The position numbers and the translations under genes were made by a program. From Ignavibacteriota bacterium (GTDB lineage Bacteria > Bacteroidota > Ignavibacteria > UBA10030 > UBA6906), in contig CAWDEM010000008.1 in the NCBI GenBank assembly GCA_963801355.1, positions 1,920,001-1,984,000 of the forward strand: a stretch of 64,000 bases of DNA, given 5' to 3'. Below the pieces are notes generated by a model, which worked only from the letters and a program-made list of their open reading frames with translations, did not search any database and was not told where the DNA came from. Positions 10,492 through 61,259 of this stretch are shown here, one piece after another. Each line of letters opens with the position of its first letter. Position 1 is the first letter of the stretch.

Positions 10492-10534
10492 GGGGTGGAT
10501 TACGCCGAAATAAGCCTAAATTTCGCTGAAATAT

Positions 10535-10563
10535 AAGATAAGAAACAGCCTGAATGGATGCAA
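10535..10563 (-). promoter_or_regulatory. Putative sigma70 promoter of tRNA-Arg
   Basis: Minus strand TTGCAT-17 nt-TATCTT, about 45 nt upstream of the tRNA. Confidence 0.5.
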
Positions 10564-10586
10564 GCGATCACTGTGCAAGCGATCAC
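10559..10586. repeat. 13-bp direct repeat TGCAAGCGATCAC x2
   Basis: Copies at 10559-10571 and 10574-10586. Confidence 0.8.
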
Positions 10587-41309: not shown

Positions 41310-41456
41310 CGCGTGTCTCCTCGTTCCGCTGCTCTTCTGCTATCGCTGTGCGTCCATAGGTTATTCAATGTAATGTAGCAAACTTCTCTCATAGAAGCCT
41401 GCATGGTTTTTTCCACAATTCCACCTATATTCCATCATGCTCATGCGAGTCGAAAC

Positions 41457-43511: not shown

Positions 43512-45596
43512 CTCCGCGTCCACACAAGCGGGTTGACGGAAGGCCGCGAGGAGAGCAGACTGCCACACACCCATCTCCCGCCCTCCGCAGGGTTTTCTGG
43601 ATCGTTACTCTTGCTCTCCCCATCATTGTCCTCGTGCTGTGCGAAGCGGGGCTCCGCATCGCTGACTACGGTGGAAATCTCGATCTGGTGGTCAGAAAGA
43701 ACACCCATGGCAGGGAATTCAACTGCATCAATCGGAGTGTCGCCCAGAGGTACTTTCCTCCTTCCGGATCCAGTATCCCTGAACCCAGAGACCAGATATT
43801 CCAACTTCGGAAGGGTCCGCGGACACGGCGTATCTTCTGCCTGGGGGAATCCACGATGGCGGGCTTTCCGTACGACTTCCATGCTACCGCGCCATCGTTT
43901 CTGTCCGACCGCCTGCAGAACCTCTTCCCCGAAGACACAATAGAGGTCATCAACGTGGGGCTCTCCGCCGTGGGGAGCCATGTGGTCCTCGATTTTGCGC
44001 TCGAGTTGCTCGACTACGAACCTGATCTTTTCATCGTGTATTTGGGTCACAATGAATTCTACGGTGTTTATGGCGTCGGGTCTTCGCTCTCGGTCGGCGG
44101 TGGATCATGGATGACCCGCCTCACGCTCCGCCTGGTCCGCTTCAGGACGTTTCTGCTCGCCCGCAACTTCTACGCTTCCCTCACTGCACGTTCATCTCCA
44201 CCCACGGGTGAGGATGCAACGCTCATGGAAAACGTAGTCGGAGAGGGGTCAATCCCCTATGGCTCCAGGGCCTACAACGATGCCCGCGAGATTTACCGCG
44301 AGAATCTGGAGCGCATCATTGACGCTTCCAGGTCGCGCAACGTCCCGATCATGTTTACTGCTCTCGTCAGCAACCTCCGCACCCACGCGCCGTTCCAGCC
44401 GGTGTTCGCCGACGGCACGCCCATAGAGGCACGGGCTCAACACACTGCACTCATGAAATTGGCAGACAGCCTCCTGGCGAACGGAGATGCCATGGGCGCG
44501 TTTGCACAGAGCAGCCGCGCGGTCCTTCTCGACTCGAGCCATGCCGGCGGCTGGTTCGCCCGGGCCACAGCGGCCTACGCGCTCGGGAAGTACGATACCG
44601 CTGAGCGTGCATTCCGGCAGGCGAAAGGATCTTGATGCACTCCGGTTCCGCGCAACAGAAGAATTCCAGGATGTACTGTTCTCAGTCTGCGCCAAGCAGG
44701 GTGTCCCTGTGATCCATGCAGACTCCGCATTCGCCGCGGCCTCGCCTCACCGGATTGTTGGCTCCGAGCTGATGACGGATCACCTCCACCCGAACATCCG
44801 TGGCTACTTCCTGATGGGGAAGGTGATGACCGAGGCGATCCGTGACGCCGGGCTGCTTGCCCCTCCCGATCGCTGGAGGAACGACCGCGCATTGACCGAC
44901 GACGAGTACTTCGCGCGTTCAACCGTATCAGATTTCGACAGTCTTTGCGGGGCGATCAGGATAGAACTCCTCATGAAGCACTGGCCATTCCCATCACGCG
45001 GCGCTGTGGCCGGCTACAGGCCGGCGACACCCGAGGCCACAATTGCGTACGCCTATGTCCGCAACGCGCGGGCATGGCAGCTCGCGAGGTACGACATGGC
45101 ATCGCACTACGAGCTCCAACGCAGGTTTGACCTTGCCCGCCGCGAATGCCTCGCGGTGGCAAAGGCTGCACCGTACTCCTATGAACCCTTGCTCCGTGTG
45201 GCAGATTACTTCAGGATGGAAGGAAATGCCGCGGACGCTGAACGGTACTATCGCTTGTCATTTCAGACCGAGAACAATCCCTTCGCCCGGATGAAGCTTG
45301 CAGTCATGCTTCTTGAAGCTGAGCGGTCGCAGGAGGCCGTGGAACAGCTCGTCACAACACTTGACCTGGAGCGGCAGGCAGGCGCCCGGTTGGATGCGCA
45401 GGCAACGGCGACGGCCAGATACCTCCTTGCGGTCGCACTCGCCAAAACCGGGAAATTCGACACCGCGCGCGAGAACCTCGATGTGGCCCTGCAGCTTGAC
45501 CCCCGCAACACAAGCGCGCGCGACCTCCTAAAGCAGATCGATATACATGATAAGCGGTTGCAAACGCGAAAGGGCGCGGCAGAAGAGCAGCACTAA
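43508..45596 (+). CDS. Membrane-anchored SGNH/GDSL-fold protein with TPR repeats (paralogue 3), apparent +1 frameshift near 44625
   Basis: LGESTMAG, YLGHNE in 43508..44635; DHLHP and TPRs in 44487..45596. GCGAAAGGAT minus one base restores AKDLDALRFRA as in the paralogues. Confidence 0.83.
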
Positions 45597-45710: not shown

Positions 45711-48672
45711 TTACTTCAACAGCAGCATCTTCTTCACTTCAACAAACTTGCCCGCCTCAAGCCGGTAGAAGTACACGCCGGTCGACAGCTTCTGTGCATC
45801 GAACAGCGCAACATAGTTGCCCCGCCCCTGCACTTCATTGTTGACCAGTGTAGCCACTTCCTGTCCGATGAGGTTGAACACTCTCAATGTCACGCTCGCT
45901 TCCGCCGGAATGGAGTAGCGGATGCGCGTGGCAGGGTTGAAGGGGTTCGGGTAGTTTTGCAGTAACGCGAACTCGTTCGGGAGACCCATTCCGGGTTCAG
46001 GCGCCACATCCGTCGAGAATGGTGCCAGCTCGCCCGTCAACGGAGCATCCCGCTTCCACTGATCCACCGGAGCAGCGTACGAAGCCGGCCATGCATTCGG
46101 ACCCGTTGGCTGGATGAACCGTGTGATATACGGGTTCTGGGTGCCGAGACCGCCGCCCTGATCCACGGCGTTGCCACCGGCGTGAATGTAGCGGTATGTG
46201 TACTGCATGTTGTAGTGTGTCTTCCCCTTCACGGTGAAGATCGCCTGGTAGATCGAGTCACCGCCACCCGGGGCGAGAGTCATCGTAATATCCGGGAACT
46301 GACCACTCGCACCGCCGCGTGCAGCGCGCTGGGCACTCCGCCAGAGAATATTCTGCCAGATCAATCGCACGGTGTCCGCAGCAGGAACAAAGGCATCAAT
46401 ATACCGTTTCGCGGGACCCATGTTAACTTTCAGCGTCACGACGCAGCTGTCCGTCGTGTTCAGGAACAAGCCCCGCGAATCGATGTCGGAGAACCAGCGG
46501 CGCGGAACCACGGTGTTGCCGCCGCCAGTAACAAAGAACTGAATGTTGCCATCTCCACGCTCCGCAGGGTGATCGTAGCAGAAGCCGTCACGTGTCGCAC
46601 CGGTTCCCGAGTTGACATACCCGGGGAAACGAGCCGTGGCACCGACCGAATCAAGCGCCATGAAATACTTGTACGACAGTTGGTCACCGATTGCGCCGTT
46701 GTACACCAATGCCGCTTCATAGTTGCCCGGCTGTCCGATTACAGGCAACAGCTTCGTCCCGACCCAGCCGTTGAACCCGCCACGCACCTCGATGGAATCC
46801 TTCAGATCCGGACGGAACCACCCCAGCGTCTGGTATGCACTCATATTAATCTGCCAGAGGAAGTTCACCGTCACGGGGGCATTGAAGAGCGAGTCGTTAT
46901 CGAAGTACACGAGCGGGGTCGAGCCGCCGCCAACCGGCACATTGTACTTGCGGTTGTCCACACCCTCCCAGTCGCCGCTCCGAGTGGTTTTGAGGTACTT
47001 GTACTCGATCGCCTGACCTTCGTTCAGGGTGATCGTCTTCGTATAGATGCTGTCATTGTTGGCATCTTTCAATGTGTCGGTCGAGCTTCCCCAGTTGTTG
47101 AAGCTGCCCGCGACACGAACGATGTCACCGCTCCCGGGCAGGAAGGTCTGCTCAAGCATCTTGATCTTCATGTTCACCTGGAACGTCACACCTGCAGGCA
47201 CAGGAGGCGTGTAGATCGAGTCATTGTCAAAGTATACTGCAGGAATCGTCTGCGCACCCGCCACAACGGTATACGTGCGGTTCGAAACGGACTCCCAATC
47301 GAGTCCCGCGCGGAGGGTCTTGAAGAATTTGTACTCGATGCGCACCCGCTGGCATATAGATGGCCTTGGTGTAGACGCTGTCGCCGTCCAGATCGGTCAA
47401 GAAGTCCGAGCCGCCCCAGCCGTTGAAGCTCCCTTTCACTTGAAGAACATCACCGCTGCCGGGCAAGAAGCCGCCCTCGCGCATCTTGATGTTCATCTTC
47501 GCTTGCAACGTCACGCTGCTGACCTTGAATTTCAGCGCTCTGTAGTACCCCACGACGTACGCGCTGTGGGGATTCATGAATTGCGCATTGGTCAGATCGG
47601 CGCCGATGGATGTCGTGTCAGGGGCGATCAGGGCCCATGTCGCGCCACCATCAACCGACCAGTCAGCCTTCGGATAGTTGCCTTGGTACCCCATGGCCAG
47701 CAGATTGTTCGTGCCTTTTACCGGCATGACGGACTTCAGAGTGATGCCAGATTCCACGAGAATCGTGTCGCTCCAGGTGGCACCGCCATCTGTGGTCTTG
47801 TGGGCGTAGCAGAATAGTGTAGAAGATGTCCGGCGAGGGACTATCCAGCCGACGTTCTCATCCAGCATATTGATCGACTTGATGTAGTATGCATTCGTAA
47901 GCCCGCCGGTCAGTGTGACAGGGGTTGAGGTCCATGTATCGCCGAAATTCGTTGAACGTACGATGCGCGGCGCAGTCCCGGAGCCTTCGTACGTCGTAAT
48001 CCAAATATTCCTGCCGATGATGTCCATCGGCTGCCGGTACGTTGCATACGAGGCATACTTGTTGGCGGTCGCATCTTCGGCGGGAAGGTTCGAGAAGCGG
48101 GTCCAGGTTGCCCCGGCATCCAGACTCTTGAGGACGAGGAGGCCCAGAGCATCAGCATCACCAATAGCGATGATGCTATCCCCACCTGTAAACACTACTC
48201 CATTGATATATAGCGTCCCATCGCCAAAGTGGTACACGCTGTCCCAGCTCGTTCCACCGTTCGTCGTGCGGTACATGTAGCCATCGAACGTGCCGAGAAC
48301 GGCAACGTTCGCGTCACGAGCTCCAAGCGTGAATCCTTTCTTGTTTGTGAATCCCAACGTATCGTAGCTCCAGCTCGCGCCCGTATCCGTAGACTTAAAG
48401 AGAATATCCTCTTTGGTCGAGTTGATGTAACCGGTAATCCAGATCGTGCCGTCATTGAATGCCTTCACTTGGTTCAGGACTAACCCTGCGGCCTTCAATG
48501 ACAGCGTATCCCAGTATGCTGGGTTTGCGCTGATACCCTCGACCCTTGAGGGCGTAATACCCCTCGTGTCAATACCGTCCAAGGTGTTTTTCCTCTCCAC
48601 CTTGTCACCGGCTGCAAACGCGATGCCAGCAATAAGAGTCACTGACAGGAGTGCCAGTAGAATCTTGCGCAT
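45711..48672 (-). CDS. T9SS-exported protein: Asp-box beta-propeller plus tandem CBM20/48-like modules, apparent +1 frameshift near 47341
   Basis: Signal peptide, six S/T-x-D/N-x-G-x-T/S-W boxes, three G.FN.W...YK repeats, CTD QNYPNPFNP...STGVYFYRL...MLLLK. The frameshift falls inside repeat 1. Confidence 0.82.
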
Positions 48673-48896: not shown

Positions 48897-49922
48897 TCAG
48901 TACATCAAAGCAACCGAAAACTTGTGCACATCACTCAGCAACCCGAACTTCTCGTACGCGTAGTCGAGTCGGAACACCAGGTTGTCGGTCAAACCATACC
49001 GTACGCCGCCCCCAACGGTGAACTGTTCTTCGCTGTCGCGGGCACCGAGAGCTCTATATCCTGCACGGATCGAGAGAATGCGCTGCAACACCGAGTACTC
49101 GAACCCGACATTGATGTTTTCCGCATTGTCGTTGGGGTGTGAGGCATCTACCGCCAGAATCAGCGACTGATCTTCGTCTGCGATGGGCTGATACGCCACA
49201 CCGATGCGAAGCGCGAGGGGAAGATCGAAGCTCTCCGTGCTCAGGTTCGCATTCACGTTTGCATTGTTGCCGTTGTTGGGAGAGATGTCCTTCTGCACAA
49301 GCAGATCGTCTCCGCTCATCCTGAGCTTCGTTCCGAAATTCGATATACCGGCGCCGAAGGTGACCCCTTCAAAGGGCGTCTTGAACAACGTACCGACATC
49401 CACTGCGAACGCCGTGGCATTCGAGTTCCAGATGTGTTCGTTGACGTATCGGACCGTGCCGCCGATGGCAAACCAATCCGTCAGGTTTTTCGCATAAGAG
49501 AGACCGAGAGCGAAGCTGCCCGCCGAGAACGTCTGACCCGTTCCCTCAGGTTGGTCCTCAGTGGTACGTTCCATCTCCGCCATCGAGAGCGAGGTGACAC
49601 TTAAGCCGAGGGTGCCGAATTCTCCGACCGGGAGCATCACACCGCCCCAATTGAAGTTGATGTCAGCCAGCCACGCCGCATGGTTGACGAGCACCTCCGC
49701 CTGCGTTGCACGAGCCAGCCCGGCGGGATTCCAGAACATCGCCGTGGCATCGTCTGCAATGCCGACAAAGGCGCCCCCCATTCCAAGAGCGCGTGCACCC
49801 ACCGGGATGCTGAGGAATTTGGCCGTCGTTGTGCCGACTTTGGTCACCTTCTGCGCTGATGCAGGCACCACGAGCAAGCCTATCACCAGCGCGAGAGCGA
49901 GACTTCTGAGATTCCTGTCCAC
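48897..49922 (-). CDS. PorV/PorQ-like (UPF0164, FadL-related) outer-membrane beta-barrel
   Basis: FL.IPVGARALGMGGAF....DDA.A.FWNPAGL, alternating beta strands, C-terminal aromatic residue; GTG 49922 with SD AGGAGG. Confidence 0.85.
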   Translation of the reverse strand: MDRNLRSLALALVIGLLVVPASAQKVTKVGTTTAKFLSIPVGARALGMGGAFVGIADDATAMFWNPAGLARATQAEVLVNHAAWLADINFNWGGVMLPVGEFGTLGLSVTSLSMAEMERTTEDQPEGTGQTFSAGSFALGLSYAKNLTDWFAIGGTVRYVNEHIWNSNATAFAVDVGTLFKTPFEGVTFGAGISNFGTKLRMSGDDLLVQKDISPNNGNNANVNANLSTESFDLPLALRIGVAYQPIADEDQSLILAVDASHPNDNAENINVGFEYSVLQRILSIRAGYRALGARDSEEQFTVGGGVRYGLTDNLVFRLDYAYEKFGLLSDVHKFSVALMY

Positions 49923-49932
49923 GTCGTCCTCC

Positions 49933-52900
49933 TTACTTGATAATCGCGAACTTGCCGACCTTCTCTCCCACACCCGGGGCATCCACATGGTAGATGTAGA
50001 TCCCGTATGCGGTAGAGAGGTTATCCCGCGTCAGGAGATTCCACTCGGCAGTTCCGTTGTTCATTGACGATGCGTGCTGGATGGTCGTCACGAGTTCACC
50101 ATTCACCGTGAAAATGCGGATCGTGCAGACCTGCGGCAGATGCGTGAAGTGGATCGCCCGCGGTCCGCGGCCCGACGTGTAGGGATTCCGCTCTTCCCAT
50201 GTTGCGGCGGCTACGTATGGATTCGGGACAACCTTGATCAGGTCAAGACTCCCTTTCGCGAGCTCCGCATCCACCTTCTGGCCCGTCGTGGAGAACTCGA
50301 ATACGTCATCTTTGCGGAAGAGCTTCGAGAGAACGACACGCAACGTGTCTCCCGCTTTGGGAGCACTCAGAATTGAATCATACCCCATACTGAGCCCCCA
50401 GCTGATGGCCAGCGAATCTTTCGAGTCCCGCTCGAGAAACACTATGAAGTCGCTGACATTGTCAAAACCGACCATTCCCGTGCTGAACAATCCGGGTCCT
50501 CCCGTCAGATCAAGCTCCCAGAAGGCAAAGTCGATCTGCTTGTTCTCCGACGTATTGAACACCTTGAAGTTTACCGGGACGGCCGGGAGCGGAGAGGCAA
50601 ATGTTCGGACAGTAAAGGACGTGGAAGTATCGGTACCCACCGGGCCGAACACGATCTTGTAGTCCGCGGGTTTCTGTTGCCCCACCACAAACCCGCTCTT
50701 CCACTGACGGAAATCAAATGTGTACACGCCCAGGCGACTCCACCCCGAGAGCGCACCGTTGACGCCAAAGGCCTTCTCGTTGTTCACGACGAGCCGGAAC
50801 CCGTGCGTCAGTGGATGCTCCACGGTGTCGGCAAGCTTTGTGGTCCGCCGGATAAGCGTGTCAATCATCGATGAGTTGGTGATGTCTGCCAGCGTCAATG
50901 TCTTCGTCAGGAAGGTATCAGGAGCTGAAGCCCCCCCTGCGTGCACAGTGTCCTCAAAGGTGATTCGGTACTTGTGGTTGTCTCGCACACTGTCGGGATC
51001 CACAATCACATACCCGAGGCTGCCTGTTGTTGAACCCGACACGAGTTTGATGGGACTCACCTTTGCTCCAACATACCCGGCCACCGACGCTTCCGGTACC
51101 GCGATCGCCACCGATGTCCCCTTGCCGACGAGTTGCCCGGTGACGTTGTCGATGTTGATCTTGAGATTGCTTTCCGAAGGAGTGATGTTCAGCGGTGCGT
51201 ACCCCTGGTCGAACGCGCGGACTACGTAGTAATACTTCTGCCCGTTCTGAACGGAACTGTCTGTCCATTCATGTGCAAGGCCATAGTCCGTTCCCAGGTA
51301 GAACTGGACGCCGTTGTACGGTGTCGGGTGGAACCCCTTTATACCGTCCACCAAATCGAATTGCATGATCGGTTTGAGGAACGGAGCCGCTGAGCCGAAT
51401 CCGTCGGTGATCAACTTCGCATCGAGGAACGAGGCGTCAGTTGCCCGGTAAATCCTGTATCCTTCGAAGTCGTGCGCGGGAGCCCCCGGAATGCCCTGAA
51501 GGAACCTGTCCGTCGATTCCTCGGCCCTTCTATCCCAGTAGAGCGTGACCCTTTTATCTCCCACCACCGCTTTCACGACGGGTTCAATCGGGGCCTGTGC
51601 AAACTGGTAATCTTCGTTGTAGGCGAGCTGCGCGAATTCCCTCTTCCTCAGCGCGTCGTCGAATGCCCCACTGACGCGCGCATTCCCGTAGGTGGTCGCG
51701 GCACCGAATACCACAGCAAACGAGATCCGCTCAATCTGGCCGGCCTTCATCGGGAATATGCCTGACGATACGAACAGATCGCTCTCTCCCGTCGGGATAA
51801 GGGCAGGGTTGACAAATTTGCCGGGGAGCATGAAGTCACCCCAGAACCGGATGTCGGCGGTCGTGCTGAAATTGATGGCACCCGCAGCAAGGTACTGCAC
51901 GTTCGTCAGACCGATTTGATCGGCCTCAGATACGTCCGTTTTGTCGATGTTTGGCTCCCCGGGGAATGGTGTGCCGACGCCTGAAGTCGGCCTGCCATCT
52001 CCTTCACCCTCATCACCGGTGCTGGCGGCACCATCGAGTCCTACATCATCCGTGAGGCGGTTCCAGTCGCCGTCATTGTCGACGCCGTCGTTTCGCCCCT
52101 CATCGATCATGTCGTCGATCCCCTCGTCTATCCCGGCAACAATCAACCCGTCTTTGTTGATGTACTTCTTCCCCACGTCTTCCGCGCCGACGTCATAAAG
52201 GATCACGTTGGACCCGGGGACCCGGTAGCGGTGAAAAGGATCGCTCGCGGCCTGAGTCACCATATCCTGCGTGACCACCGGGAGGTTATCCAGACAGTCG
52301 CCGTTGTTATCGATGTTGTCTTTATATTTCTTCCCGAGATCGTCAGGCCCGGCCACATCGATGAGATGGATGCTCCCCTGCTGAAAGGCGTCCTTTTCCG
52401 GTTCCTGGGGCCAACGTTTCCAAAGATCAAGTGACGCCTGGCTGATCATGGTTTGTGTGATGACCGGACTCCCCGATTCGCCGTTGCCGTCGTTGTCGAT
52501 GCCGTCGGCAAAGCCGACGCCACGCTGTTCCCCAAAGGCGATATACGTCGAGTCCTCGTCTATGAGTCCGTTGAGATTGTTGTCGATTTGATCGCCACTG
52601 ATCTCTGCACTTGTTCCGGGAATGCGCGACTCAAACATCGCCCCCGTCACTTTGGGGCCCATCTGGAACTCGGGACTGTCACCGTCGTTGTCGATCCTGT
52701 CGGTTGCGTTCCCTGGTGTTTCCAGATAGAGCGTCGCTGCACAGCCAACGGGGACACCGGAGAAAGCAGGATTCGAACTCTTCCCATCGGCATCAAGCGA
52801 GAACGCGATATCCAGAATCAGATCAAATGACGGGCTGTCATCCTGCGAATCGCCGTCCCCTCCGACAAAGTCGGCCAGCCAGAGCGTGACACCGGTCCGC

Positions 52901-53622
52901 GCGATGTCTTTCGTGCCGTCATTCTTGACTTCGTGAATGAAAAATACCGCATCGGCCACAGACGCTTGCGACCACTGCAGCGCACGGCCATCCACAATCA
53001 TCCCGAGGCCGCGCCGCTTGGTGTCGGTGGTGTCAGGAGTGTAGTCCCAGCGGTCGTAGTTGTCATCTCCCACACGGTAGTAAATTTCCTGATCCGCACT
53101 AAACTGGTTCTTGCCAAAATAGCCATTCCACGATCCTGCCCAGCCCGGGTCTGTCCGATCGCCCACTTTGTCGGGCCAGTTTTTCGGCCAGGTGTCAGGC
53201 TCGTCGCTCTTGGCGAGCTTTCCTTGGTCGGGGTTGAAATAGCCCGGGACGGGGCCCATATTCCAATCCGCTCCGCTGCCAGGGTTCGTCCGGTAGGCCG
53301 GCAGATCGACAATGCGAATAGTCTTCCCCGTATTGTCGGTCACTTCCCCTCCTACAAACAGCGCAATGAGGGCGATGTAAACGCGGTTCGTGTTTTTCGG
53401 CCACTCGTACGGAACGCCCTGCCCGGCGCCCGTGCGACCGGAGAACACAAAGTTGAAGACGCTTGTGCGGACGTTGTTCCCATCCATCTCTGTCCGCCGG
53501 CGCAGTGTCGGGTCGACCCGCTCTTTGCTCGGCGTATGCCCGCTTGTTTGAGCGGAAACACCCGCCAGGCCGGAAGCCAGGAGCAGCACCGTGAAGACGA
53601 TTATGAAATTCTTGCGAAACAT
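49933..53622 (-). CDS. Large exported protein (1229 aa) with Asp-rich Ca-binding-type repeats, FN3-like region and divergent T9SS-like CTD
   Basis: SPI signal (GVSA-Q), DxDNDGD repeats, VTLYWD..FEGYRIYR..NGQKYYYVVRAFD, C-terminal IKVVPNPY...IRIFT..GELV...GIYIYHV...KFAIIK. Confidence 0.8.
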   Translation of the reverse strand: MFRKNFIIVFTVLLLASGLAGVSAQTSGHTPSKERVDPTLRRRTEMDGNNVRTSVFNFVFSGRTGAGQGVPYEWPKNTNRVYIALIALFVGGEVTDNTGKTIRIVDLPAYRTNPGSGADWNMGPVPGYFNPDQGKLAKSDEPDTWPKNWPDKVGDRTDPGWAGSWNGYFGKNQFSADQEIYYRVGDDNYDRWDYTPDTTDTKRRGLGMIVDGRALQWSQASVADAVFFIHEVKNDGTKDIARTGVTLWLADFVGGDGDSQDDSPSFDLILDIAFSLDADGKSSNPAFSGVPVGCAATLYLETPGNATDRIDNDGDSPEFQMGPKVTGAMFESRIPGTSAEISGDQIDNNLNGLIDEDSTYIAFGEQRGVGFADGIDNDGNGESGSPVITQTMISQASLDLWKRWPQEPEKDAFQQGSIHLIDVAGPDDLGKKYKDNIDNNGDCLDNLPVVTQDMVTQAASDPFHRYRVPGSNVILYDVGAEDVGKKYINKDGLIVAGIDEGIDDMIDEGRNDGVDNDGDWNRLTDDVGLDGAASTGDEGEGDGRPTSGVGTPFPGEPNIDKTDVSEADQIGLTNVQYLAAGAINFSTTADIRFWGDFMLPGKFVNPALIPTGESDLFVSSGIFPMKAGQIERISFAVVFGAATTYGNARVSGAFDDALRKREFAQLAYNEDYQFAQAPIEPVVKAVVGDKRVTLYWDRRAEESTDRFLQGIPGAPAHDFEGYRIYRATDASFLDAKLITDGFGSAAPFLKPIMQFDLVDGIKGFHPTPYNGVQFYLGTDYGLAHEWTDSSVQNGQKYYYVVRAFDQGYAPLNITPSESNLKINIDNVTGQLVGKGTSVAIAVPEASVAGYVGAKVSPIKLVSGSTTGSLGYVIVDPDSVRDNHKYRITFEDTVHAGGASAPDTFLTKTLTLADITNSSMIDTLIRRTTKLADTVEHPLTHGFRLVVNNEKAFGVNGALSGWSRLGVYTFDFRQWKSGFVVGQQKPADYKIVFGPVGTDTSTSFTVRTFASPLPAVPVNFKVFNTSENKQIDFAFWELDLTGGPGLFSTGMVGFDNVSDFIVFLERDSKDSLAISWGLSMGYDSILSAPKAGDTLRVVLSKLFRKDDVFEFSTTGQKVDAELAKGSLDLIKVVPNPYVAAATWEERNPYTSGRGPRAIHFTHLPQVCTIRIFTVNGELVTTIQHASSMNNGTAEWNLLTRDNLSTAYGIYIYHVDAPGVGEKVGKFAIIK

Positions 53623-53647
53623 TCCGGGTTCTCCTCTGGTTGAGATC

Positions 53648-56476
53648 TTAGAAACTCAGCTCGACGCCGACCTGCACTTCACGTGGCTCGGTGAAATAGT
53701 CCGGCCGAACAATGTAGTCTCCGACCGAATTGATGCGACCCGCCGCGTCGATGTTCTGCGCTCCCAGCGCCTGCACCGTTGCAGTGGCACGCCCGGTCTG
53801 GCCATAGATTTCCGCTTCGTTCCGTCGGTCGAACAGATTAAACACTTTCAGGAACACACTTGCAGTCATGGGTCCCAAGGTGAAGTTCTTGAACGCCCGG
53901 AGATCCACAGTATAGTTCTCCGGTCTTCTCCTGCTGTTCTTCTGCACGGCCCTGGCGGCATCCTCACCACGTCCCTCTGCCTGGTTGATCACAGGAGTGT
54001 ACGGGAGACCCGAACCATAACGGCCCAGGACGAAGAGACCCCAATCCTCCTCGCCAACGCCCAGCGTGAGATTCACCGTGTGAGTCTGATCCCAATCGAG
54101 CGGTGTGAGCGCACGGGCAGGTTCGGTATTGTTCCGGTACGCCGCCGCCTCATCATCCGGATTCGAGTTGTTCCCTTCGGCAGCCTGGAATGTGTATGCC
54201 AGGTTGAGAGACCATAGATCGCTTTGACGCTTCGTAATCGTCAACGTCACACCCCGGGAATTTGCATAGTCGCGGTTGATGTACGTGAGGTATGACGACG
54301 TAAACGTATCAAGGTCACGCACCGGGATGGGCGTACTGGTCGTCACCCAGTCACGAGTGTCGCGATAGAATCCTGTGACGTCGAACGTCAGCACGTCGCT
54401 CACCTGCTGCTGGAGGCCGATCTCGTACATGATCGTCCGCTGTGGCTCGAGATCAGGATTCCCCCACGTCCCCTGCACCCCGCTCGCCTGCGTCACCTTG
54501 TAGCCGGGCTTCTGATACAGATGAATGAAGGAGGGAATCTGCAGGAAATGGCCGTACGAGAAATGCAGGACGCCCTTATCCGTGATGGGATACGAGATGC
54601 CGAACCTCGGGCTCACGCTGTACTTGGCTGTCGCATTCTTGTACCATTTTGCCATCCGCTCCTCGAGCGACAACACCTTGTTCTCCTCCTTCTGAGGAAG
54701 GTAGACGTTCGGGTCCTGAAGATCTGCCGGCGACTTGCCGCGTGAATTGAAGTAGTCGAACCGGAGACCAATGTTCACGATCATCCTCTCATATTCCAGT
54801 TTGTCCTGGACGTACACGGAGAACTCCCGTGGGGTCTGAGTGTATTCCTCATACAACGGGCTGTCCGTGGCAGGAATGATCGGCCCTGCCCCGGTCAGCG
54901 CATCCTCGGTAAGGTTGAAGTCCTCGAGGTAGAGACGATGGACTTTCATCTCCAACCCCAGCTTTAGTTGATGCAACTGGCTGAGCTGATCCGTGTAATC
55001 GAATTTCGCAACAGCGGTTTCCGTGCGACGCTTGAAGCGATGATTGTTTGTTCCCTTGCTGATGTATTCGTACAAGTTGCGGTTCAAGGCGTTCGGATCA
55101 GTCACGTACCGTGAATCGTACGGATCGTCGTAGAGATACTCTTTGAAGTCCTTCAGGAAGAATGACACTCCGAGAGTGTAGAACGATGTCGCTCCCAACG
55201 TGTGTGTCCAGAGGGCGGCCGTATTGTAGCCCCGATCGAACTTTTTCACGTCTCCGTCAGGCGTCAAGAACCAGTCGTGCGAGTAATCTCGATAGTCGAT
55301 CTTACTGCCAAGTCCGCTCAGGCTCAGTTTGATGGAGCCGGAAATCTGATAGGTGAGCTTGAACTGGCCGGAATACCTGGTGCGATCGTTCATAGGAACA
55401 GGATCATCGGCCACCGACGCGCCTGTCACATTTCCCTGCTGGTCGAGCAGAAGCGTCGGCGGATGCGCGAGCTCCGGATTCCCGAAGGCGTTGGGCTGAG
55501 GCAGGAACACCCTGTTCCCCCAGAGGTAGCCGTCGGAGTGGTAGTAGCGGCCGGATGCATAGAACGTGAGGCCGTTCAATTCCGGCACAGGACCGCTTAT
55601 GCTTCCCTCAAAATTCTTGTTATTGAACGGACGGATCTTGTCCATATTGTAGTAGAGCTCGCTGACGTCCGTCCCTTCCGAAGGCTGACTCGCGGTCGAC
55701 ATGATATCGCGCCCGCCGAAAAGCCATCCATTGCCGGTTACGTAGGACCCGGCATAGGCCTGCAGAGTGCCGTGATAGTTGCTTTCACCATCCTTGGTAA
55801 CGATATTCACGATCCCCGACATCGCCTGACCGTATTCGGCATTGAACGTGCCGCTGATCACCTGCAACTCCTGCACGGCATTGTTGTCCACCTGCACCGC
55901 CTGTCCGCCGTCATAGGCATCGGAGACCGAGACGCCGTCAACCCAGTACGCCACTTCACTCGAGCGGCCCCCGCGGATGTGAATGCCGCCTCCACGGTCA
56001 ACGGTGATCCCGGCCTGCAGCGACAGCACTTCGCTGACCTCCTGCACCGGCAGCGACTCGATCTGCGCGGCATCCACACGCGCCTCCGAAGAGGTCAGGT
56101 CCTTTTTCACCGCCCTCCGTTCCGCCGTGACCACTACCTCCTCCGCCTCCACCATCGCCGACGCAATTTGAACGTCCACGGTGCTTGTGAGGTCGATGCT
56201 CACTGCCACACCGACCACACGTTTCTTCGTGTACCCGACGGCCGAAGCAACGAGAGTATACTTGCCCGGGGGAACATTCAAGATGACATAGTACCCGTCA
56301 AGGTTGGAGGCAGCTCCCATCAACGTTCCTTCGAGCTGGATGTTCACGCCAGCGAGCAGCTCGCCGGTTTGCGCGTCTTTGATTTCACCCGCAATCTTAC
56401 CGGTCGTCCCCGCCCATCCCGCAGCGGCAAAGGCCAGGACCATCGCGAGGATTCCTCTCATGCGCAATGGCTTCAT
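53648..56476 (-). CDS. TonB-dependent outer-membrane transporter with N-terminal CarboxypepD_reg-like domain
   Basis: GKIAG...G.Y.ILNVPPG.Y; plug HIRGGR..EV...VDG, SG.FNAEYG.AMSG.VNIVTKDG; barrel SPRFG.SYP, GNPDL.P, NLFD; terminal F. Confidence 0.95.
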   Translation of the reverse strand: MKPLRMRGILAMVLAFAAAGWAGTTGKIAGEIKDAQTGELLAGVNIQLEGTLMGAASNLDGYYVILNVPPGKYTLVASAVGYTKKRVVGVAVSIDLTSTVDVQIASAMVEAEEVVVTAERRAVKKDLTSSEARVDAAQIESLPVQEVSEVLSLQAGITVDRGGGIHIRGGRSSEVAYWVDGVSVSDAYDGGQAVQVDNNAVQELQVISGTFNAEYGQAMSGIVNIVTKDGESNYHGTLQAYAGSYVTGNGWLFGGRDIMSTASQPSEGTDVSELYYNMDKIRPFNNKNFEGSISGPVPELNGLTFYASGRYYHSDGYLWGNRVFLPQPNAFGNPELAHPPTLLLDQQGNVTGASVADDPVPMNDRTRYSGQFKLTYQISGSIKLSLSGLGSKIDYRDYSHDWFLTPDGDVKKFDRGYNTAALWTHTLGATSFYTLGVSFFLKDFKEYLYDDPYDSRYVTDPNALNRNLYEYISKGTNNHRFKRRTETAVAKFDYTDQLSQLHQLKLGLEMKVHRLYLEDFNLTEDALTGAGPIIPATDSPLYEEYTQTPREFSVYVQDKLEYERMIVNIGLRFDYFNSRGKSPADLQDPNVYLPQKEENKVLSLEERMAKWYKNATAKYSVSPRFGISYPITDKGVLHFSYGHFLQIPSFIHLYQKPGYKVTQASGVQGTWGNPDLEPQRTIMYEIGLQQQVSDVLTFDVTGFYRDTRDWVTTSTPIPVRDLDTFTSSYLTYINRDYANSRGVTLTITKRQSDLWSLNLAYTFQAAEGNNSNPDDEAAAYRNNTEPARALTPLDWDQTHTVNLTLGVGEEDWGLFVLGRYGSGLPYTPVINQAEGRGEDAARAVQKNSRRRPENYTVDLRAFKNFTLGPMTASVFLKVFNLFDRRNEAEIYGQTGRATATVQALGAQNIDAAGRINSVGDYIVRPDYFTEPREVQVGVELSF

Positions 56477-56489
56477 ACGATGCCCCTTC

Positions 56490-58196
56490 TCATTTTTTCA
56501 CCAAATGGACTGAAACATTCGCCAGATTCTCGACATTCATAGTGACGCTTGCTCTTCCGCGCAATGCGTCCAGCGCTTCCTTGAACGCTTCCCGATTCTT
56601 CATCTCCTTCACTTGCGTGAGCGTCTGGTCTTGTGATTCCTCGAAGGACCTGACCCGCGCTTCTTTTTTCTCCACGACTCTAAACACTCCCCAATACGGG
56701 TCCACTCTTTCGGGACCCACAATATCTCCGACACGCGCTGCAAAAAACTTCTCACCCATCACACCGTAGCCTGCCTTGGAGCTGAATCCTAGCTCCCCTC
56801 CACGCTTTGCCGCCCAGAGCCGGATGGAGTGCGCACGGGCAAGACCCGCGAAATCGACTCCTCGGCGCGCCTGCCGTGCGATCAACTTCGCCTCCGCCTC
56901 CGTGCGGACCAGGACCTCAGCAACGTTGACCAGTGGCGGGTCGGCGTAGTTCATCTTGTTTTCTTCATAGATCCGACGGAGCAGAGTGTCGGGCCACCCA
57001 TCCCGCCCCACCGTATCCTGGACGAGATCCGCCCAGTACCGGAGACGAAATTCGCCGCCGAGGTTATCCATCTGATCGACGACCTGCGGATCTTCGTCCA
57101 GATCCAGATCCTCAGCGCGCTTCAGAATCTCGTCGCGGGCAGCGAGGCCGAGGATGACCTCCTTAAGATCATCGGCACTTTTCACACGGCGACGCTGACG
57201 TTCCTTGGTGTCTGCAAGCTTCTGCTTCAGCGTTTCAACGGTCCACCAGGACCCGTGGAATCGGGCAAGTTTGCTCCCGCGAAGGTCACGCGAAGGCGGG
57301 AGAGCGGACTCCGGGCGTTGCATCGCCTTATCATCGATGGTCAGCGAGGTCCACTCCGCAACCACCGCTTCGACCGTTGTCTCGTCGAACTGCGGGTCCA
57401 TCGCACGCGTGATCGTCATGACGTGTTCGCGCAGGAGACGCGGTGCCGTGCGTTTCACAATCGCCTCTGCCAGCTTCCCCCTCACTTTAGCAAAGTCACC
57501 CTCGGATGCAAGGGGATTGACCACTGCTCTCGAATCAACGCGGACGATCGCATAACCCATGCTCATCTTCAACGGCTCCGACAGCGCCCCGACCGGCAGC
57601 GTATAGGCGGCCTCCTCCAGTGCCTCCTCCATTTCCCCCCAACCAAAGGTCCCGAGGGATCCGCCATTATTTGCCAGGCCAGGGTCTTCAAACGTCTCAC
57701 GAGCGAGACGTTCGAAGGTCTCACCCTTTACCAACCGTTCCTTGAGCCTTTGTGCCCCCTCCTCTGTTCGTGCATACAGGTAACGTGCGGAAACCCGCGT
57801 GTTGTACCTCCGAAACTCGAGTTCAAGCTGCTGCGGTGTCACAGTCAAGGTATCGGTGGTCACGCGGCGTGCGTACCCATCAGCCATCGCTTGCCGGCGA
57901 ATCAAATCCATCTCTTTCCGATATGCAGAATCCTGCTCAGCTCCGTGGGCCCGCAGATCCTCGAAAATCAGCCGTTCGTTGATCATGTTCTGGAGCACCT
58001 GCTTGCGCACCTGGATATTGTCCTTCACCGAGGTGCTCGAAAGGTACTTCTGGTATCGCGTTCGAAATTGATCGGCGGATATCCGCACACCGTCGACCAC
58101 GGCAACCTCATCCCCCCTGTCGGTCCCACATCCACCGAGAAGCACAAACGCGACAGCCACGATAATAGACACCGAGACTGAATTCCGACGCATCAT
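56490..58196 (-). CDS. Peptidyl-prolyl cis-trans isomerase lipoprotein (PrsA/SurA-like, two parvulin domains)
   Basis: Lipobox LGGC; F..LA....D......GG.LG, F..LA..HS......GG.LG. Confidence 0.85.
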   Translation of the reverse strand: MMRRNSVSVSIIVAVAFVLLGGCGTDRGDEVAVVDGVRISADQFRTRYQKYLSSTSVKDNIQVRKQVLQNMINERLIFEDLRAHGAEQDSAYRKEMDLIRRQAMADGYARRVTTDTLTVTPQQLELEFRRYNTRVSARYLYARTEEGAQRLKERLVKGETFERLARETFEDPGLANNGGSLGTFGWGEMEEALEEAAYTLPVGALSEPLKMSMGYAIVRVDSRAVVNPLASEGDFAKVRGKLAEAIVKRTAPRLLREHVMTITRAMDPQFDETTVEAVVAEWTSLTIDDKAMQRPESALPPSRDLRGSKLARFHGSWWTVETLKQKLADTKERQRRRVKSADDLKEVILGLAARDEILKRAEDLDLDEDPQVVDQMDNLGGEFRLRYWADLVQDTVGRDGWPDTLLRRIYEENKMNYADPPLVNVAEVLVRTEAEAKLIARQARRGVDFAGLARAHSIRLWAAKRGGELGFSSKAGYGVMGEKFFAARVGDIVGPERVDPYWGVFRVVEKKEARVRSFEESQDQTLTQVKEMKNREAFKEALDALRGRASVTMNVENLANVSVHLVKK

Positions 58197-60112
58197 TTGC
58201 CCGACTTCAAAATGCGGCCAGCTACACGGTCGACCGGCACCGCCAGTGTGGTCTTCCCGGCGATGAACTCATCACCAGAGCGGAGATCACGCCAGCGGGA
58301 TCCTTCGGTCACACCGGGGAGCGGGATCGTCAGCGTGGCCTGCGCCCCGTTGTTGATGAGCACCAGCAGGCGATCTGTACCGAGGGAACGCTCGAAGGCA
58401 AATGCATCCTGGCCGTCGTTCACCGAGACCACGCGGTATTCACCTCGACGCAGTGCCGGCTCAGCCGTCCGCAAGCGCATCAGCGTCCGGTATTCATCAT
58501 GCAGTCCGGCATTGAACACCACGCTATCGCGCGGGCGGGATTTGCCGAGCGGGTGGCTGACTTCGGGATCATACGTCAACTCGCGCCAGACCATCGGCTT
58601 CCGCTCGTCCGGGTCATCACCGCCCCACATGCCGGCCTCTTCGCCGTAGTAGACCGCGGGTGCGCCTACATAGGTCATTTGAAAGAAGACGAGCAGCTTC
58701 TGCCGCCGGATCTCTTCGTCCGAGGGTTTGCGCACGTCGTACTCCGGATTGTCGCGCGCGCCCACCCGGTGATCAAAGAGCATGTCAATATTGACCAACA
58801 TCGAACCCAGCCGATCGGTGTCATGGCTGGCGTAGAGATTCATCAGAACCGCGTTCACGTCCGCACGATAGTCGGCGCGAAGGGCATCGAGCCGCGCAAT
58901 GAGCTCCGTCGCGGTGATCTTGAGTGTGCGATCACGGAAGAAATGAAGAGCTTCTGCAGCCCAGCGGTAGTTCATCACCGCGTCGAACACATCTCCGCGC
59001 AGCCAGGGTTCGGCGTTGAACATCTTGTTCTTGGGCCAATCCTCCCACCAAACCTCACCCGTAAGGTAGGAATCGGGATTGATCTCCCGTGTCCACTGCC
59101 GGAATTGACGCCAGAACGGAATCCCAACCATTTCTGCAACGTCGAGCCGCCATCCGTCAATGCCGTCCGAGGGATCACCGTCACCGTTCGGGTCCATCCA
59201 GCGCTTCACAACGCTGTGGATGTGCTCCCGCGGTCCGGTAACGATGCCGTTTTCGTCTTCGCGCCACTCGGGCAGGTCCTTCAGCCCTGCCCAGCCGGTG
59301 TAGTCGAATTCATCAGCCGACGTGGAGGGATCGTCCCATGTCGTAACCGTGAACCAATCGCTGAACGCCGACGCTTTTCCCTTCGCACGCAGGTCACGAA
59401 ACGCCCAGAACGTTGTTCCGACGTGGTTGAAGACACCGTCGATGATGACATGCATGCCCCGGCGATGAGCCTCGTCAACAACCTTCAGAAACAGCTTGTC
59501 GGCAGAGGTCCACGTCCAGGTGGCGGGATCCTCCGGTCGCTCGGTTGCCCATAGGCGAGTATCCCCGGCGGGATCCGGGCCGAAGTTGTTGTCGATGTGA
59601 TGGTACATCGATGCTTCGTACTTGTGCAACGACGGTGCTTCGAACAGCGGATTGAAATAGATGGCAGTCACGCCGAGGTCCTGCAGATAGTCGAGCTTGT
59701 CAAGAACGCCCTGAAGATCACCGCCATACCGGCGCTGGTGCACAATCTCGTAGAACTTCTTGCCCGAAGTTTTCTCCCACGGCTGCAGCTCGTACCAGTC
59801 TCCCGTCCATTTTGAGATGCGCCACCCCTTCGGGCGTTCGAAGGGATAGGACAGCACGACATCTTCCACCGTCGGATCGTTGACCGGATCCCCGTTCCGA
59901 AATCGTTCGGGGAAAATCTGGTACCAGACTGCATCGCGCGCCCACTCTGGTACCCGAAGCAGACGTTCGGGGATGCGATGGTCGGTATTGGACGGCGCAC
60001 AGGCATACAGGAGTGAACACAAAAGAGCAACGCAAGCGACAGCCATGAGCACGAAGAGCGTCCGGACTCGACGCAAAGAAGATCGGCACGCTGTGTGTTT
60101 GGTGGTTATCAT
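58193..60112 (-). CDS. GH13 cyclomaltodextrinase/neopullulanase-like lipoprotein
   Basis: WYQIFPERF, DGVFNH, DGWRLDV, GEVW, ASHD, YYGEE.GM.G.DDPD; LYAC lipobox-like; ATG 60112 overlaps the lacI stop (ATGA). Confidence 0.92.
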   Translation of the reverse strand: MITTKHTACRSSLRRVRTLFVLMAVACVALLCSLLYACAPSNTDHRIPERLLRVPEWARDAVWYQIFPERFRNGDPVNDPTVEDVVLSYPFERPKGWRISKWTGDWYELQPWEKTSGKKFYEIVHQRRYGGDLQGVLDKLDYLQDLGVTAIYFNPLFEAPSLHKYEASMYHHIDNNFGPDPAGDTRLWATERPEDPATWTWTSADKLFLKVVDEAHRRGMHVIIDGVFNHVGTTFWAFRDLRAKGKASAFSDWFTVTTWDDPSTSADEFDYTGWAGLKDLPEWREDENGIVTGPREHIHSVVKRWMDPNGDGDPSDGIDGWRLDVAEMVGIPFWRQFRQWTREINPDSYLTGEVWWEDWPKNKMFNAEPWLRGDVFDAVMNYRWAAEALHFFRDRTLKITATELIARLDALRADYRADVNAVLMNLYASHDTDRLGSMLVNIDMLFDHRVGARDNPEYDVRKPSDEEIRRQKLLVFFQMTYVGAPAVYYGEEAGMWGGDDPDERKPMVWRELTYDPEVSHPLGKSRPRDSVVFNAGLHDEYRTLMRLRTAEPALRRGEYRVVSVNDGQDAFAFERSLGTDRLLVLINNGAQATLTIPLPGVTEGSRWRDLRSGDEFIAGKTTLAVPVDRVAGRILKSGK

Positions 60113-61167
60113 GTCAATACCGTGCGTGGAGTGGAGCCGGTGAGCACCTGCATCTTCGCGCCGCACGAGCGGCGCACAATCAGATCCGGAAGAAACATTG
60201 TCAGTGTCGGGAGATCGTCCGGCTCCTTCATGCGGCGCATCAGCTTCTCCATCGCCAGCTGCCCCATCTCGTACATGGGCTGACGCATTGTGGTCAGCTC
60301 GGCATATTGCGCGAGCTCGATGTCGTCGAATCCCACGATGGCAAGATCCTCAGGGATGCGTACGCCCGCCGTCCGCGCCGCTTCAAGCGCTCCGATGGCC
60401 TGCACATCACTTGCGATGACCACAGCGGTGGCGCGGTCCGGTCCGGTGTTCCGCTCCAGCAGGCGCCGCATCGATTCGCGCCCTGCCTCACGGCTGAACC
60501 CGTCGTTCTTGCCGAAATCGCCGATGACAAGAAGGTCCGATCGAAACGGAATGCCCGCCTCTTCCAACCCCATGCGATATCCTTCCAATCGCTCCAGCGC
60601 GGGCTGAGTAGACAGATTCGCGTTGATCATGGCGATGGAACGATGACCCAGGGCCACAAGATGTCGTGTCGCTGCAAGCGCCCCGTCGCGGTTCTGCACG
60701 CGGATCGAGTCAAACTTCGGGTGAAACGCATCCACCAGGACCAGCGGCAGACGCGTTTGCTCGAACTTGGCCGCGTGTGCCTCCGGAAGCTTCATGGAAA
60801 AAAAGAGGACACCGTCGACGTGACCGCGGTGCGACGAACGACGGAGGTATTCATCCACCTGTGCGGGATGATTCACGCTGTAAAGGATCAAATCGACACC
60901 GCAGTCGGCAGCATAATCCTGCACGCCCTGCAACACCTGAACGAAAAAATAGTTCGTGAAGGAGGGAATGATGACTGAGATCGTGTTGGTGCGGCGCGAC
61001 GCGAGGCGCTGGGCCTGCGCATGCGGTTGATAACTGAGTCGTATGGCTGCTGCGAGAACTTTTGCACGGGTCGGAGCTGAGACGTGGGGCTGATCATTCA
61101 AACAGCGTGAAACCGTCCCAATACCGACGCCTGCTTCGCGCGCCAGATCGTAGATAGTAACTCCCAT
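60109..61167 (-). CDS. LacI-family transcriptional regulator
   Basis: TIYDLAREAGVGIGTVSR HTH, Y.P...A..L hinge, P.D...VGFDD, LTT..QP. Confidence 0.96.
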   Translation of the reverse strand: MGVTIYDLAREAGVGIGTVSRCLNDQPHVSAPTRAKVLAAAIRLSYQPHAQAQRLASRRTNTISVIIPSFTNYFFVQVLQGVQDYAADCGVDLILYSVNHPAQVDEYLRRSSHRGHVDGVLFFSMKLPEAHAAKFEQTRLPLVLVDAFHPKFDSIRVQNRDGALAATRHLVALGHRSIAMINANLSTQPALERLEGYRMGLEEAGIPFRSDLLVIGDFGKNDGFSREAGRESMRRLLERNTGPDRATAVVIASDVQAIGALEAARTAGVRIPEDLAIVGFDDIELAQYAELTTMRQPMYEMGQLAMEKLMRRMKEPDDLPTLTMFLPDLIVRRSCGAKMQVLTGSTPRTVLT

Positions 61168-61210
61168 CGATGGGGAGCAGTTCAGTATACAAGTGAGAAG
61201 GAGGTGAACC

Positions 61211-61232
61211 TTTTTGGAAGCGCTTCCATAAA
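61211..61232. promoter_or_regulatory. LacI-type operator
   Basis: Perfect CG-centred palindrome TGGAAGCGCTTCCA (61215-61228) extended by TTT/AAA, directly downstream of the lacI -10 box. Confidence 0.8.
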
Positions 61233-61259
61233 GATAGAGTTTTCGAGCTGATTAGTCAA
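61231..61259 (-). promoter_or_regulatory. sigma70 promoter of the lacI operon
   Basis: Minus strand TTGACT-17 nt-TATCTT. Confidence 0.65.

Follow-up and report, generated by a model that had tools for sequence, protein, structure and literature searches.

A conserved transporter, giant-protein and PorV-like barrel gene set in a SusD-less alpha-glucan locus of an Ignavibacteriota bacterium

How might a relative of the Bacteroidota capture alpha-glucan at a locus that encodes a TonB-dependent transporter (TBDT) and no SusD? The question is raised by a 64,000-nucleotide stretch of an Ignavibacteriota bacterium (GCA_963801355.1, contig CAWDEM010000008.1, positions 1,920,001 to 1,984,000), referred to here in its entirety as the window. 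A six-gene run on its minus strand, from 48897 to 61259, leads from lacI through a glycoside hydrolase family 13 (GH13) gene and a SurA-like peptidyl-prolyl isomerase (PPIase) gene to the TBDT, a 1229-residue protein and a PorV-like barrel. The protein encoded right after the TBDT is called BIG below, and the last three genes are called the triad. The answer offered here is a LacI-controlled uptake operon for starch or maltodextrin, in an Ignavibacteria-like member of the Fibrobacterota-Chlorobiota-Bacteroidota (FCB) superphylum. In it, BIG would be exported through a type IX secretion system (T9SS), retained by the barrel and employed together with the transporter. Taken as a whole, this answer is evenly poised between holding and failing, and its parts differ in strength.

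A transporter operon under LacI control

The architecture of the run agrees in all coordinates and junctions with the initial annotation, which had described one same-strand series joined by two ATGA overlaps and gaps of 13, 25 and 10 nt. Its first gene, lacI (60109..61167, minus strand), encodes a protein of the LacI/GalR type that combines a LacI helix-turn-helix (E 3.6e-14) with the periplasmic-binding-protein fold Peripla_BP_3 (E 8e-33, both Pfam) and is accompanied by a palindromic operator at the promoter. This operator is a perfect 14-bp palindrome, TGGAAGCGCTTCCA (61215..61228, no strand), with a single exact match in the window. The related loci considered throughout are the best 80 of at least 562 that were confirmed from at least 600 candidate stretches in species-representative genomes; they contain orthologues and are silent on paralogues. 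Among them, all 18 with a lacI match carry a copy of the operator, with at most three mismatches, upstream of that gene. Because it is unique in the window and kept in these loci, the palindrome is a real autoregulatory operator; a perfect operator had been named in the initial annotation. The promoter-like site itself, TTGACT-17-TATCTT (61231..61259, minus strand; 9/12 matches), has position alone in its favour, as such hexamers occur at chance level in the region (6 seen, 6.4 expected).

The GH13 gene (58193..60112, minus strand) overlaps the lacI stop with its ATG. Its product matches Pfam Alpha-amylase (E 1e-45) and Malt_amylase_C and resembles cyclomaltodextrinases, neopullulanases or maltodextrin glucosidases, with matches to NF008051 and NF041090 that both stay below cut-off. 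It had been described as a GH13 lipoprotein. The GH13 domain stands, and the lipoprotein half is doubtful: a signal sequence is followed by a possible but non-canonical lipobox (LLYAC). The canonical lipobox, LLGGC, belongs to the PPIase (56490..58196, minus strand), whose start overlaps the GH13 stop in the second ATGA. The domains of this lipoprotein, SurA_N_3 (E 4e-8), Rotamase (E 1e-22, residues 143-221) and Rotamase_2 (E 7e-20, residues 406-520), are those of SurA/PpiD-type parvulin chaperones, with a SurA-like N-terminal domain and two rotamase domains. The triad follows on the same strand, with the TBDT gene (53648..56476) 13 nt after the PPIase gene, the BIG gene (49933..53622) after a further 25 nt, and the PorV-like gene (48897..49922) 10 nt after BIG, with a GTG start behind AGGAGG.

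The transporter begins like a SusC protein. A signal peptide is followed by CarbopepD_reg_2 (residues 28-116), a Plug domain (124-221) and the barrel (Pfam), and a TonB-box-like EEVVVTA, conserved in the orthologue alignment, lies between the N-terminal extension and the plug. The N-terminal extension, TonB box and plug of SusC-style transporters are therefore all in place. The full-length resemblance fails, as the SusC/RagA model TIGR04056 reaches 77.8 bits against a cut-off of 368.25 and covers residues 27-232 only. A profile of 32 orthologues matches the plugs of Cir, FepA and PqqU in the PDB, and its match to a SusC homologue (8aa4) is restricted to the N-terminal extension. The protein thus looks like a working TBDT, yet one that the curated model places outside the SusC family. 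No SusD family member occurs among the 42 window ORFs scanned. Two statements of the initial annotation, that the window has no SusD-like gene and that SusC and SusD hidden Markov models (HMMs) fail at this locus, are thereby borne out.

Conservation of the gene set

Gene order around BIG is almost invariant. In counts made by tblastn with the window proteins, for which only loci with enough flanking DNA were testable, the TBDT gene lies immediately upstream of BIG on the same strand in 76/76 loci. The PorV-like gene lies immediately downstream in 69/70, and the PPIase gene precedes the TBDT gene in 59/59. A relative of the starch-binding CBM20 protein described below, which carries a T9SS tail, comes after the PorV-like gene in 50/55. 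The only locus that lacks the PorV-like gene (L065) is a 5-kb contig on which BIG probably reaches the contig end. The carriers are labelled Ignavibacteria, Ignavibacteriales, Melioribacteraceae, Calditrichota, Neomarinimicrobiota/Marinimicrobia/Fidelibacterota, a KSB1 metagenome-assembled genome (MAG) and Rhodothermia/Rhodothermales, and many MAGs are labelled just Bacteroidota. At least one alpha-glucan hydrolase match of more than 200 aa lies within 10 kb in 26 of the 31 loci with full flanks (tblastn). Among the five others, L029, L052 and L053 encode CBM20/48 proteins that end in T9SS tails, and L041 looks degraded; the fifth is L054, described below. The proposal that the triad is conserved across phyla and linked to carbohydrate-active enzymes (CAZymes) thus holds.

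Twelve diverse loci among the 80 give the same picture. GH13 enzymes, CBM20/48 proteins with Por_Secre_tail, LacI, HTCS-like (hybrid two-component) or TrmB regulators and sugar transporters recur in them, and a Pfam scan of their 101 flanking ORFs found no SusD family member. Second copies of triad genes were absent from all 80 loci. The core stays constant, and its regulator differs from locus to locus: LacI in some, TrmB in others, and in others again an HTCS-like kinase accompanied by LuxR-type response regulators. The Melioribacter-type loci L052 (148-4400) and L057 (416-5248) encode a Reg_prop/Y_Y_Y histidine kinase with LuxR-type response regulators, and a Fidelibacterota locus (L067, 19146-19976) has a TrmB-type regulator where the window has LacI. 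In two loci, L013 (5494-7053) and L034 (1013-2572), the 5' part of BIG contains one stop each. Collectively, the outer-membrane core is, by its gene order, a co-inherited unit of three genes (TBDT, BIG and PorV-like barrel), usually preceded by the PPIase gene as a fourth. That the triad forms a functional unit is highly probable.

Conservation of this kind across phyla, with identities of 45-86% for BIG and 40-84% for the TBDT, is unusual. It would also suit a module with a housekeeping task in the envelope, for instance in outer-membrane biogenesis or in anchoring a surface layer, that lies beside starch genes by chance. The four core genes stand among unrelated genes in one locus (L054), and a precedent exists in the Bacteroidota beta-barrel assembly machinery (BAM). 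In passages of PMC12611786, this machinery comprises the FadL-like barrel BamG and a surface canopy of BamH and BamM, the latter with a PPIase fold and a calcium-bound domain. The likeness extends to a FadL/PorV-like barrel that anchors an extracellular protein (an anchoring only predicted here) beside a 16-22-strand barrel, to a PPIase-type protein and to calcium-type motifs. However, the PorV-like barrel scores just 22.9 bits with the BamG model, whose cut-off is 250, BIG is no lipoprotein, and the TBDT has a normal plug and TonB box. Moreover, alpha-glucan genes or CBM20/48 proteins accompany the module across phyla. The module also stands under sugar regulators, whether LacI with its conserved operator, an HTCS-like kinase or TrmB. 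A housekeeping role is accordingly rated very improbable.

A paralogous triad separates the unit from its starch context. A tblastn search of 72,556 plasmids with BIG returned one record, pRMAR01 of Rhodothermus marinus DSM 4252. There, the gene order is an FG-GAP protein with a T9SS-type tail, a TonB-dependent receptor, a 1132-aa hypothetical protein, a PorV/PorQ-family protein, an Amidase_2 protein and a beta-lactamase-like protein. The receptor shares 39% identity with the window TBDT over residues 21-942 and has the identical domain set. The 1132-aa protein is a BIG paralogue with 35% identity over BIG residues 441-1229 and 33% over 130-315, and the PorV/PorQ-family protein is 43% identical to its window counterpart. 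The Amidase_2 protein is an N-acetylmuramoyl-L-alanine amidase with a tail resembling a T9SS C-terminal domain (CTD), and the hydrolase beside it is of the class A beta-lactamase-like type. Starch genes, a PPIase and SusD are all missing from this locus. None of its triad genes is closest to Rhodothermales starch-locus orthologues (ranks 52-63 of 70-80), so the three genes have diverged, or travelled, as a set. Single as the example is, it identifies the triad as the unit and shows that starch is not a fixed part of its setting. A search of the plasmids with the PorV-like protein found only the R. marinus copy and a distant PorQ.

Two further features of such loci can be recorded. The plasmid triad (L081, record 1-31067) lies between type III-A (csm1-5) and type I-U (cas7u, csb2, cas3u) CRISPR-Cas loci. 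Additionally, the triad repeatedly has FG-GAP/ASPIC-UnbV proteins as neighbours, their tails being of the FlgD_ig or CHU_C type, in L029 (17100-18920), L055 (16876-18834) and on pRMAR01 (7918-10650).

BIG and its proposed cognate barrel

BIG starts with a signal of the signal peptidase I (SPI) type. Read from the sequence, cleavage would follow VSA and leave a mature N-terminal Q; the cleavage site lacks a Cys. Next come, in this order, an N-terminal beta-sandwich rich in Trp, repeats of the Asp-rich DNDGD type, fibronectin type III (FN3)/Ig-like domains and a divergent T9SS-type tail. The alignments show plentiful invariant Trp, Tyr, Asp and Glu in the N-terminal module, and the loop-helix repeats behind it look calcium-binding. 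A Pfam scan assigned no family to BIG, nor to 35 family members, apart from weak CHU_C matches in 2/35. A word-indexed protein search listed more than 1643 homologues, all named "hypothetical" except one "fibronectin type III domain-containing protein", and none of those listed has a precomputed Pfam domain. An exhaustive search found 4039 clusters (50% identity) matching BIG at E <= 1e-3, of which 546 match at E <= 1e-30. Many of the clusters cover residues 474-1200 alone or 2-275 alone, so the family is modular. A search for longer, fused forms of BIG found none, which is weak evidence.

Structure-based searches left BIG equally isolated. A model of the whole protein (pLDDT 70, pTM 0.46) is almost all beta, and Foldseek matched it to generic FN3/Ig strings only, with TM below 0.1. 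The separate model of the N-terminal 476 residues, also almost all beta, is confident (pLDDT 85.6, pTM 0.67) and has 0 matches in the PDB at E <= 0.001. Searched against the PDB, a profile of 35 family members yielded nothing beyond chance matches and one FN3-like chain (E 0.02). In the ESM Atlas, the near clusters are all unnamed, and residues 30-310 have no usable named match. Pfam searches of 39 representatives of BIG paralogues detected T9SS tails, Reg_prop and BNR in some of them and no carbohydrate-binding module (CBM) or glycoside hydrolase (GH) domain in any. SusD was considered as an identity for BIG and rejected: Pfam gives no SusD/RagB match, the models are all-beta where SusD is an all-alpha, tetratricopeptide repeat (TPR)-like fold, and the signal is of the SPI type, with no Cys to be lipidated. 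BIG is thus neither a SusD nor a recognisable glycoside hydrolase, identities that would have undone the initial annotation and that Pfam, the PDB profile and Foldseek all fail to support. What had been said of its ends fared unevenly, for the SPI signal and the lack of a lipobox and SusD repeats stand, and the CTD-like tail falls below HMM cut-offs.

Such a protein might act on starch alone, as a T9SS adhesin, a scaffold or an unrecognised enzyme, and owe its place beside the TBDT to co-regulation without forming a complex. The N-terminal module, with its many invariant aromatic and acidic residues and no known fold, would suit an independent role, Asp-rich repeats and FN3 strings are typical of adhesins, and the locus holds other T9SS cargo that acts outside the cell. 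Co-regulation accounts poorly for the gene order, which keeps TBDT, BIG and PorV-like barrel together with short gaps in 76/76 and 69/70 loci while other locus genes shuffle freely. Moreover, the same order persists in the paralogous triad away from starch genes, whose three members have diverged jointly. On balance, a stand-alone BIG is unlikely, and a partnership with the TBDT is preferred.

The tail provides the proposed link to the barrel. The C-terminal domain of BIG (49936..50235, minus strand) resembles a type A T9SS CTD with an insertion of about 15 residues after its PNPY motif. Within the last 100 or so residues, the family alignment shows an invariant VVPNPY and an invariant terminal Lys, and the structure model forms a terminal beta-sandwich here with moderate confidence. 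Paralogue P0163 has a Por_Secre_tail that Pfam recognises, and the BIG tail aligns with it in register apart from the insertion (pair E 2e-6); Pfam also finds Por_Secre_tail or FlgD_ig at the tail position of several BIG paralogues. Within NCBIfam, the BIG tail best matches the C-terminal ends of PorZ (E 2.7e-5) and PorU (E 1.1e-3). These matches are weak, a lead rather than proof. The lead concerns the two T9SS proteins whose tails, according to passages of PMC10202324, are left uncleaved and bound to PorQ and PorV, respectively; the same source describes, as a precedent, how a CTD can stay uncleaved on a cognate PorV-like barrel.

The barrel is a member of the PorV/PorQ family, as had been suggested, with 220.1 bits against NF033709 (cut-off 90) and a match to PDB PorV (6h3i_F) at E 1.3e-10. 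It misses both equivalogs, scoring 85.6 against 250 for PorV (NF033710) and 104.6 against 220 for PorQ (NF033711). The initial annotation had asked for a structure prediction of the triad; for tail and barrel, a complex of PorV-like residues 24-341 (32-row alignment) with the last 116 BIG residues (35-row alignment) was modelled. Its score was 0.91, where the best of three controls reached 0.00. Three runs share at least 95% of their contacts, with a partner pLDDT of at least 77. The score mark is reached by 58/80 solved complexes and 2/110 mismatched pairs, a calibration that is rough here, where own alignments were used. The model supports binding of the BIG tail to the PorV-like barrel. That the barrel also anchors BIG is somewhat favoured.

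A family membership of this kind would equally be expected of a general type A shuttle. Such a barrel could serve T9SS cargo at large, or all CTD proteins of the locus (BIG, the CBM20 protein and a GH13 with a CTD), and the BIG tail would then be cleaved, with BIG attached or released in the manner of other cargo. Two canonical CTD proteins are indeed encoded at the locus, the complex model fits a shuttle as well as an anchor, and the conservation control described below does not single out the BIG tail. However, the barrel lies far below the PorV equivalog cut-off, and its gene always comes directly after BIG and not after the canonical cargo. A second copy of the barrel also accompanies the BIG paralogue on the R. 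marinus plasmid, and the BIG tail is a distinct subtype, with an insertion, that matches the tails of PorZ and PorU best, both of them retained ones. The shuttle is therefore judged rather improbable, and retention of BIG by its own barrel is the reading followed below.

Starch neighbourhood, known systems and proposed mechanism

The surroundings indicate the substrate. The rest of the window holds three more GH13 genes, GH57, GH133 and GH31 genes, MalK, a solute-binding protein, permeases and major facilitator superfamily (MFS) transporters. It is an alpha-glucan utilisation locus under LacI. The enzymes and Mal genes from which this substrate had been named are all present, and GH or CBM genes are linked to the triad in related loci as well. 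The PorV-like gene is followed, 225 nt on, by that of a secreted BNR/Ycf48-like beta-propeller protein (47227..48672, minus strand), which most related loci do not conserve, with only about 60 aa matched there. The next gene (45711..47345, minus strand) encodes a starch-binding protein with Pfam CBM_20 and Por_Secre_tail domains and a canonical type A T9SS tail (TIGR04183, 39 bits against 23). Its longest ORF overlaps the BNR-like gene by 119 nt, and the true start is probably further downstream. Orthologues of this protein carry CBM20, CBM48, CBM53 or X25. Further along, a 929-aa GH13 of the pullulanase/debranching type (38520..41309, minus strand) also has a canonical type A tail (37.5 bits against 23 for TIGR04183) and is likely, by its sequence, to be a surface or secreted amylase. 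With canonical tails on both proteins, the organism appears to possess ordinary T9SS cargo for surface starch binding and cutting.

Other genes of the window can be noted briefly. Proteins that join a GDSL/SGNH hydrolase domain to TPR repeats are encoded within the starch locus at 36695-38506 and 41403-43511 (both plus strand), and also at 43508-44635 and 44487-45596; across phyla, most related loci have relatives of these genes close to the triad. Unrelated to the present finding, a tyrosine recombinase gene (2581-3636) stands beside leuS, followed by two genes for GAF and SpoIIE (PP2C) phosphatases (3584-5356 and 6173-8275), all on the minus strand.

Several observations weigh against the proposed role of BIG. 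The tail stays under the TIGR04183 cut-off, with 16 bits against 23, and the Pfam tail family (PF18962) matches none of 35/35 BIG family members. The success of the complex model may reflect likeness to PorV-CTD complexes that are already solved (8gl6 and other PDB entries, in passages of PMC10994853), and such a model would not separate a transient shuttle from a permanent anchor, or the BIG tail from nearby canonical tails. Across 41 genomes, mean pairwise identity is higher in the tail (0.69) than in the remainder of BIG (0.55). As proof of retention this was rejected, because the canonical tail of the CBM20 protein, used as a control, shows the same pattern (0.53 against 0.35); tail conservation thus says nothing on retention. 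That CBM20 protein, overlooked by the initial annotation, looks by its domains a more obvious surface starch binder than BIG and could do all of the starch binding. In BIG itself, Pfam, structure and ESM Atlas searches detected neither a CBM nor an enzyme fold.

The conservation record also contains adverse cases. L054 holds the four core genes among unrelated genes. L041, although counted among the 69 loci with a PorV-like gene, has three in-frame stops in that frame, a BIG match of 744 aa only and a fragmented PPIase gene; together with L013 and L034, it appears to represent decaying copies or assembly errors. Moreover, a canonical susCDE operon is reported from the Melioribacter roseus genome (in passages of PMC3534657), and a MAG labelled M. 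roseus carries the triad (L057). The triad is therefore not simply what SusD-less lineages use.

Compared with SusC/SusD polysaccharide utilisation loci (PULs), such as Bacteroides thetaiotaomicron Sus and the utilisomes, the locus shares regulation by substrate and a TBDT that combines a plug and TonB box with a carboxypeptidase-regulatory-like N-terminal extension. As in those loci, the gene right behind that of the TBDT encodes a large surface partner (its surface location is predicted here), and surface starch-binding proteins, GH13 enzymes and inner-membrane sugar transporters complete the likeness. Unlike those loci, it has no SusD family gene in the window or in the 12 related loci scanned, so the SusC/SusD pair that defines a PUL is missing, and the TBDT barrel is not of the SusC family (77.8 against 368 bits). 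SusD is a TPR lipoprotein of about 550 aa, whereas BIG, at 1229 aa, is all-beta and carries an SPI signal as well as a T9SS-like tail. In contrast to Sus, the starch binder and the amylase are T9SS cargo rather than lipoproteins. TBDT loci for maltodextrin and sucrose in Proteobacteria such as Caulobacter and Xanthomonas also import oligosaccharides without SusD. Those loci are not known to encode a giant CTD protein or a PorV-family barrel, nor are the organisms known to have a T9SS.

The second comparison is with barrel and cargo pairs of the T9SS. As in PorQ-PorZ, PorV-PorU and PorP/SprF-SprB, a gene for a PorV/PorQ-family barrel adjoins the gene for a large protein with a CTD-like tail. 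As with the first two pairs, the tail's best family matches are PorZ and PorU, and a model supports its binding to the barrel. Type B T9SS cargo is as a rule encoded in a cluster with its barrel, according to passages of PMC10202324. The BIG tail differs from the type B CTDs of PorP/SprF-dependent adhesins such as SprB in being type A-like with an insertion, and CHU_C is matched weakly in 2/35 members. Unlike PorQ-PorZ and PorV-PorU, the BIG-barrel pair stands outside the T9SS attachment complex, and unlike all of these pairs it shares an operon, within a sugar regulon, with TBDT and PPIase genes. In its workings the system resembles a PUL as well as cognate T9SS barrel-cargo pairs, and the features that define them place it in neither group. 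Full-text literature searches (supplements excluded) found no paper describing the triad, and the cluster is not mentioned in the passages covered of the Caldithrix and Melioribacter genome papers.

These elements suggest the following scheme. The TBDT would import malto-oligosaccharides, as its genomic context indicates, and the SurA-like PPIase lipoprotein may chaperone assembly. BIG, with its SPI signal and CTD-like tail, would be exported by the T9SS and held at the cell surface by its divergent CTD, which may stay bound to the cognate PorV/PorQ-family barrel much as PorZ is held by PorQ and PorU by PorV; the model speaks for the binding step, and retention is conjectured from these precedents. 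Strict gene adjacency and modular paralogues point to BIG as the extracellular partner of the TBDT, capturing substrate or capping the transporter, and its Trp-rich N-terminal module of no known fold would be the likely specificity part. The CBM20 protein and the GH13 with the canonical tail would bind and cut starch at the surface, and MalK/ABC (ATP-binding cassette) and MFS systems would carry oligosaccharides across the inner membrane. The GH13 encoded after lacI would trim the imported oligosaccharides. A true lid role like that of SusD is doubtful.

More tentatively still in scope, TBDT-BIG-PorV triads could be a second outer-membrane machine for nutrient capture across the FCB superphylum, independent of SusD and dependent on the T9SS; this generalisation is speculative and the less likely outcome. 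An exchangeable N-terminal module of BIG would recognise the substrate, and the conserved C-terminal two thirds would dock on the TBDT and, by an uncleaved tail, on a private PorV-type barrel. The substrate would then be alpha-glucan here and perhaps peptidoglycan fragments on the R. marinus plasmid.

Glycan uptake in Bacteroidota and their relatives has been mapped almost entirely by searches for SusC/SusD pairs, and predictors of this kind would miss triads. The module is widespread, with at least 562 loci in species representatives and 4039 BIG-matching clusters at 50% identity, and BIG is entirely unannotated, a "hypothetical" protein with no Pfam family. In Ignavibacteria, Calditrichota, Marinimicrobia/Fidelibacterota, KSB1 and Rhodothermales, it takes the position of SusD behind the TBDT of starch loci. 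Among the groups that carry the triad, several are abundant in sediments, the subsurface and the ocean. Tests are possible in cultured carriers, of which R. marinus DSM 4252 is one and Melioribacter, Ignavibacterium and Caldithrix are probable others. Should its three members form a working complex, the triad would link the T9SS to TonB-dependent import and offer a new protein fold to study, and estimates of polysaccharide use in the carrier phyla would change.

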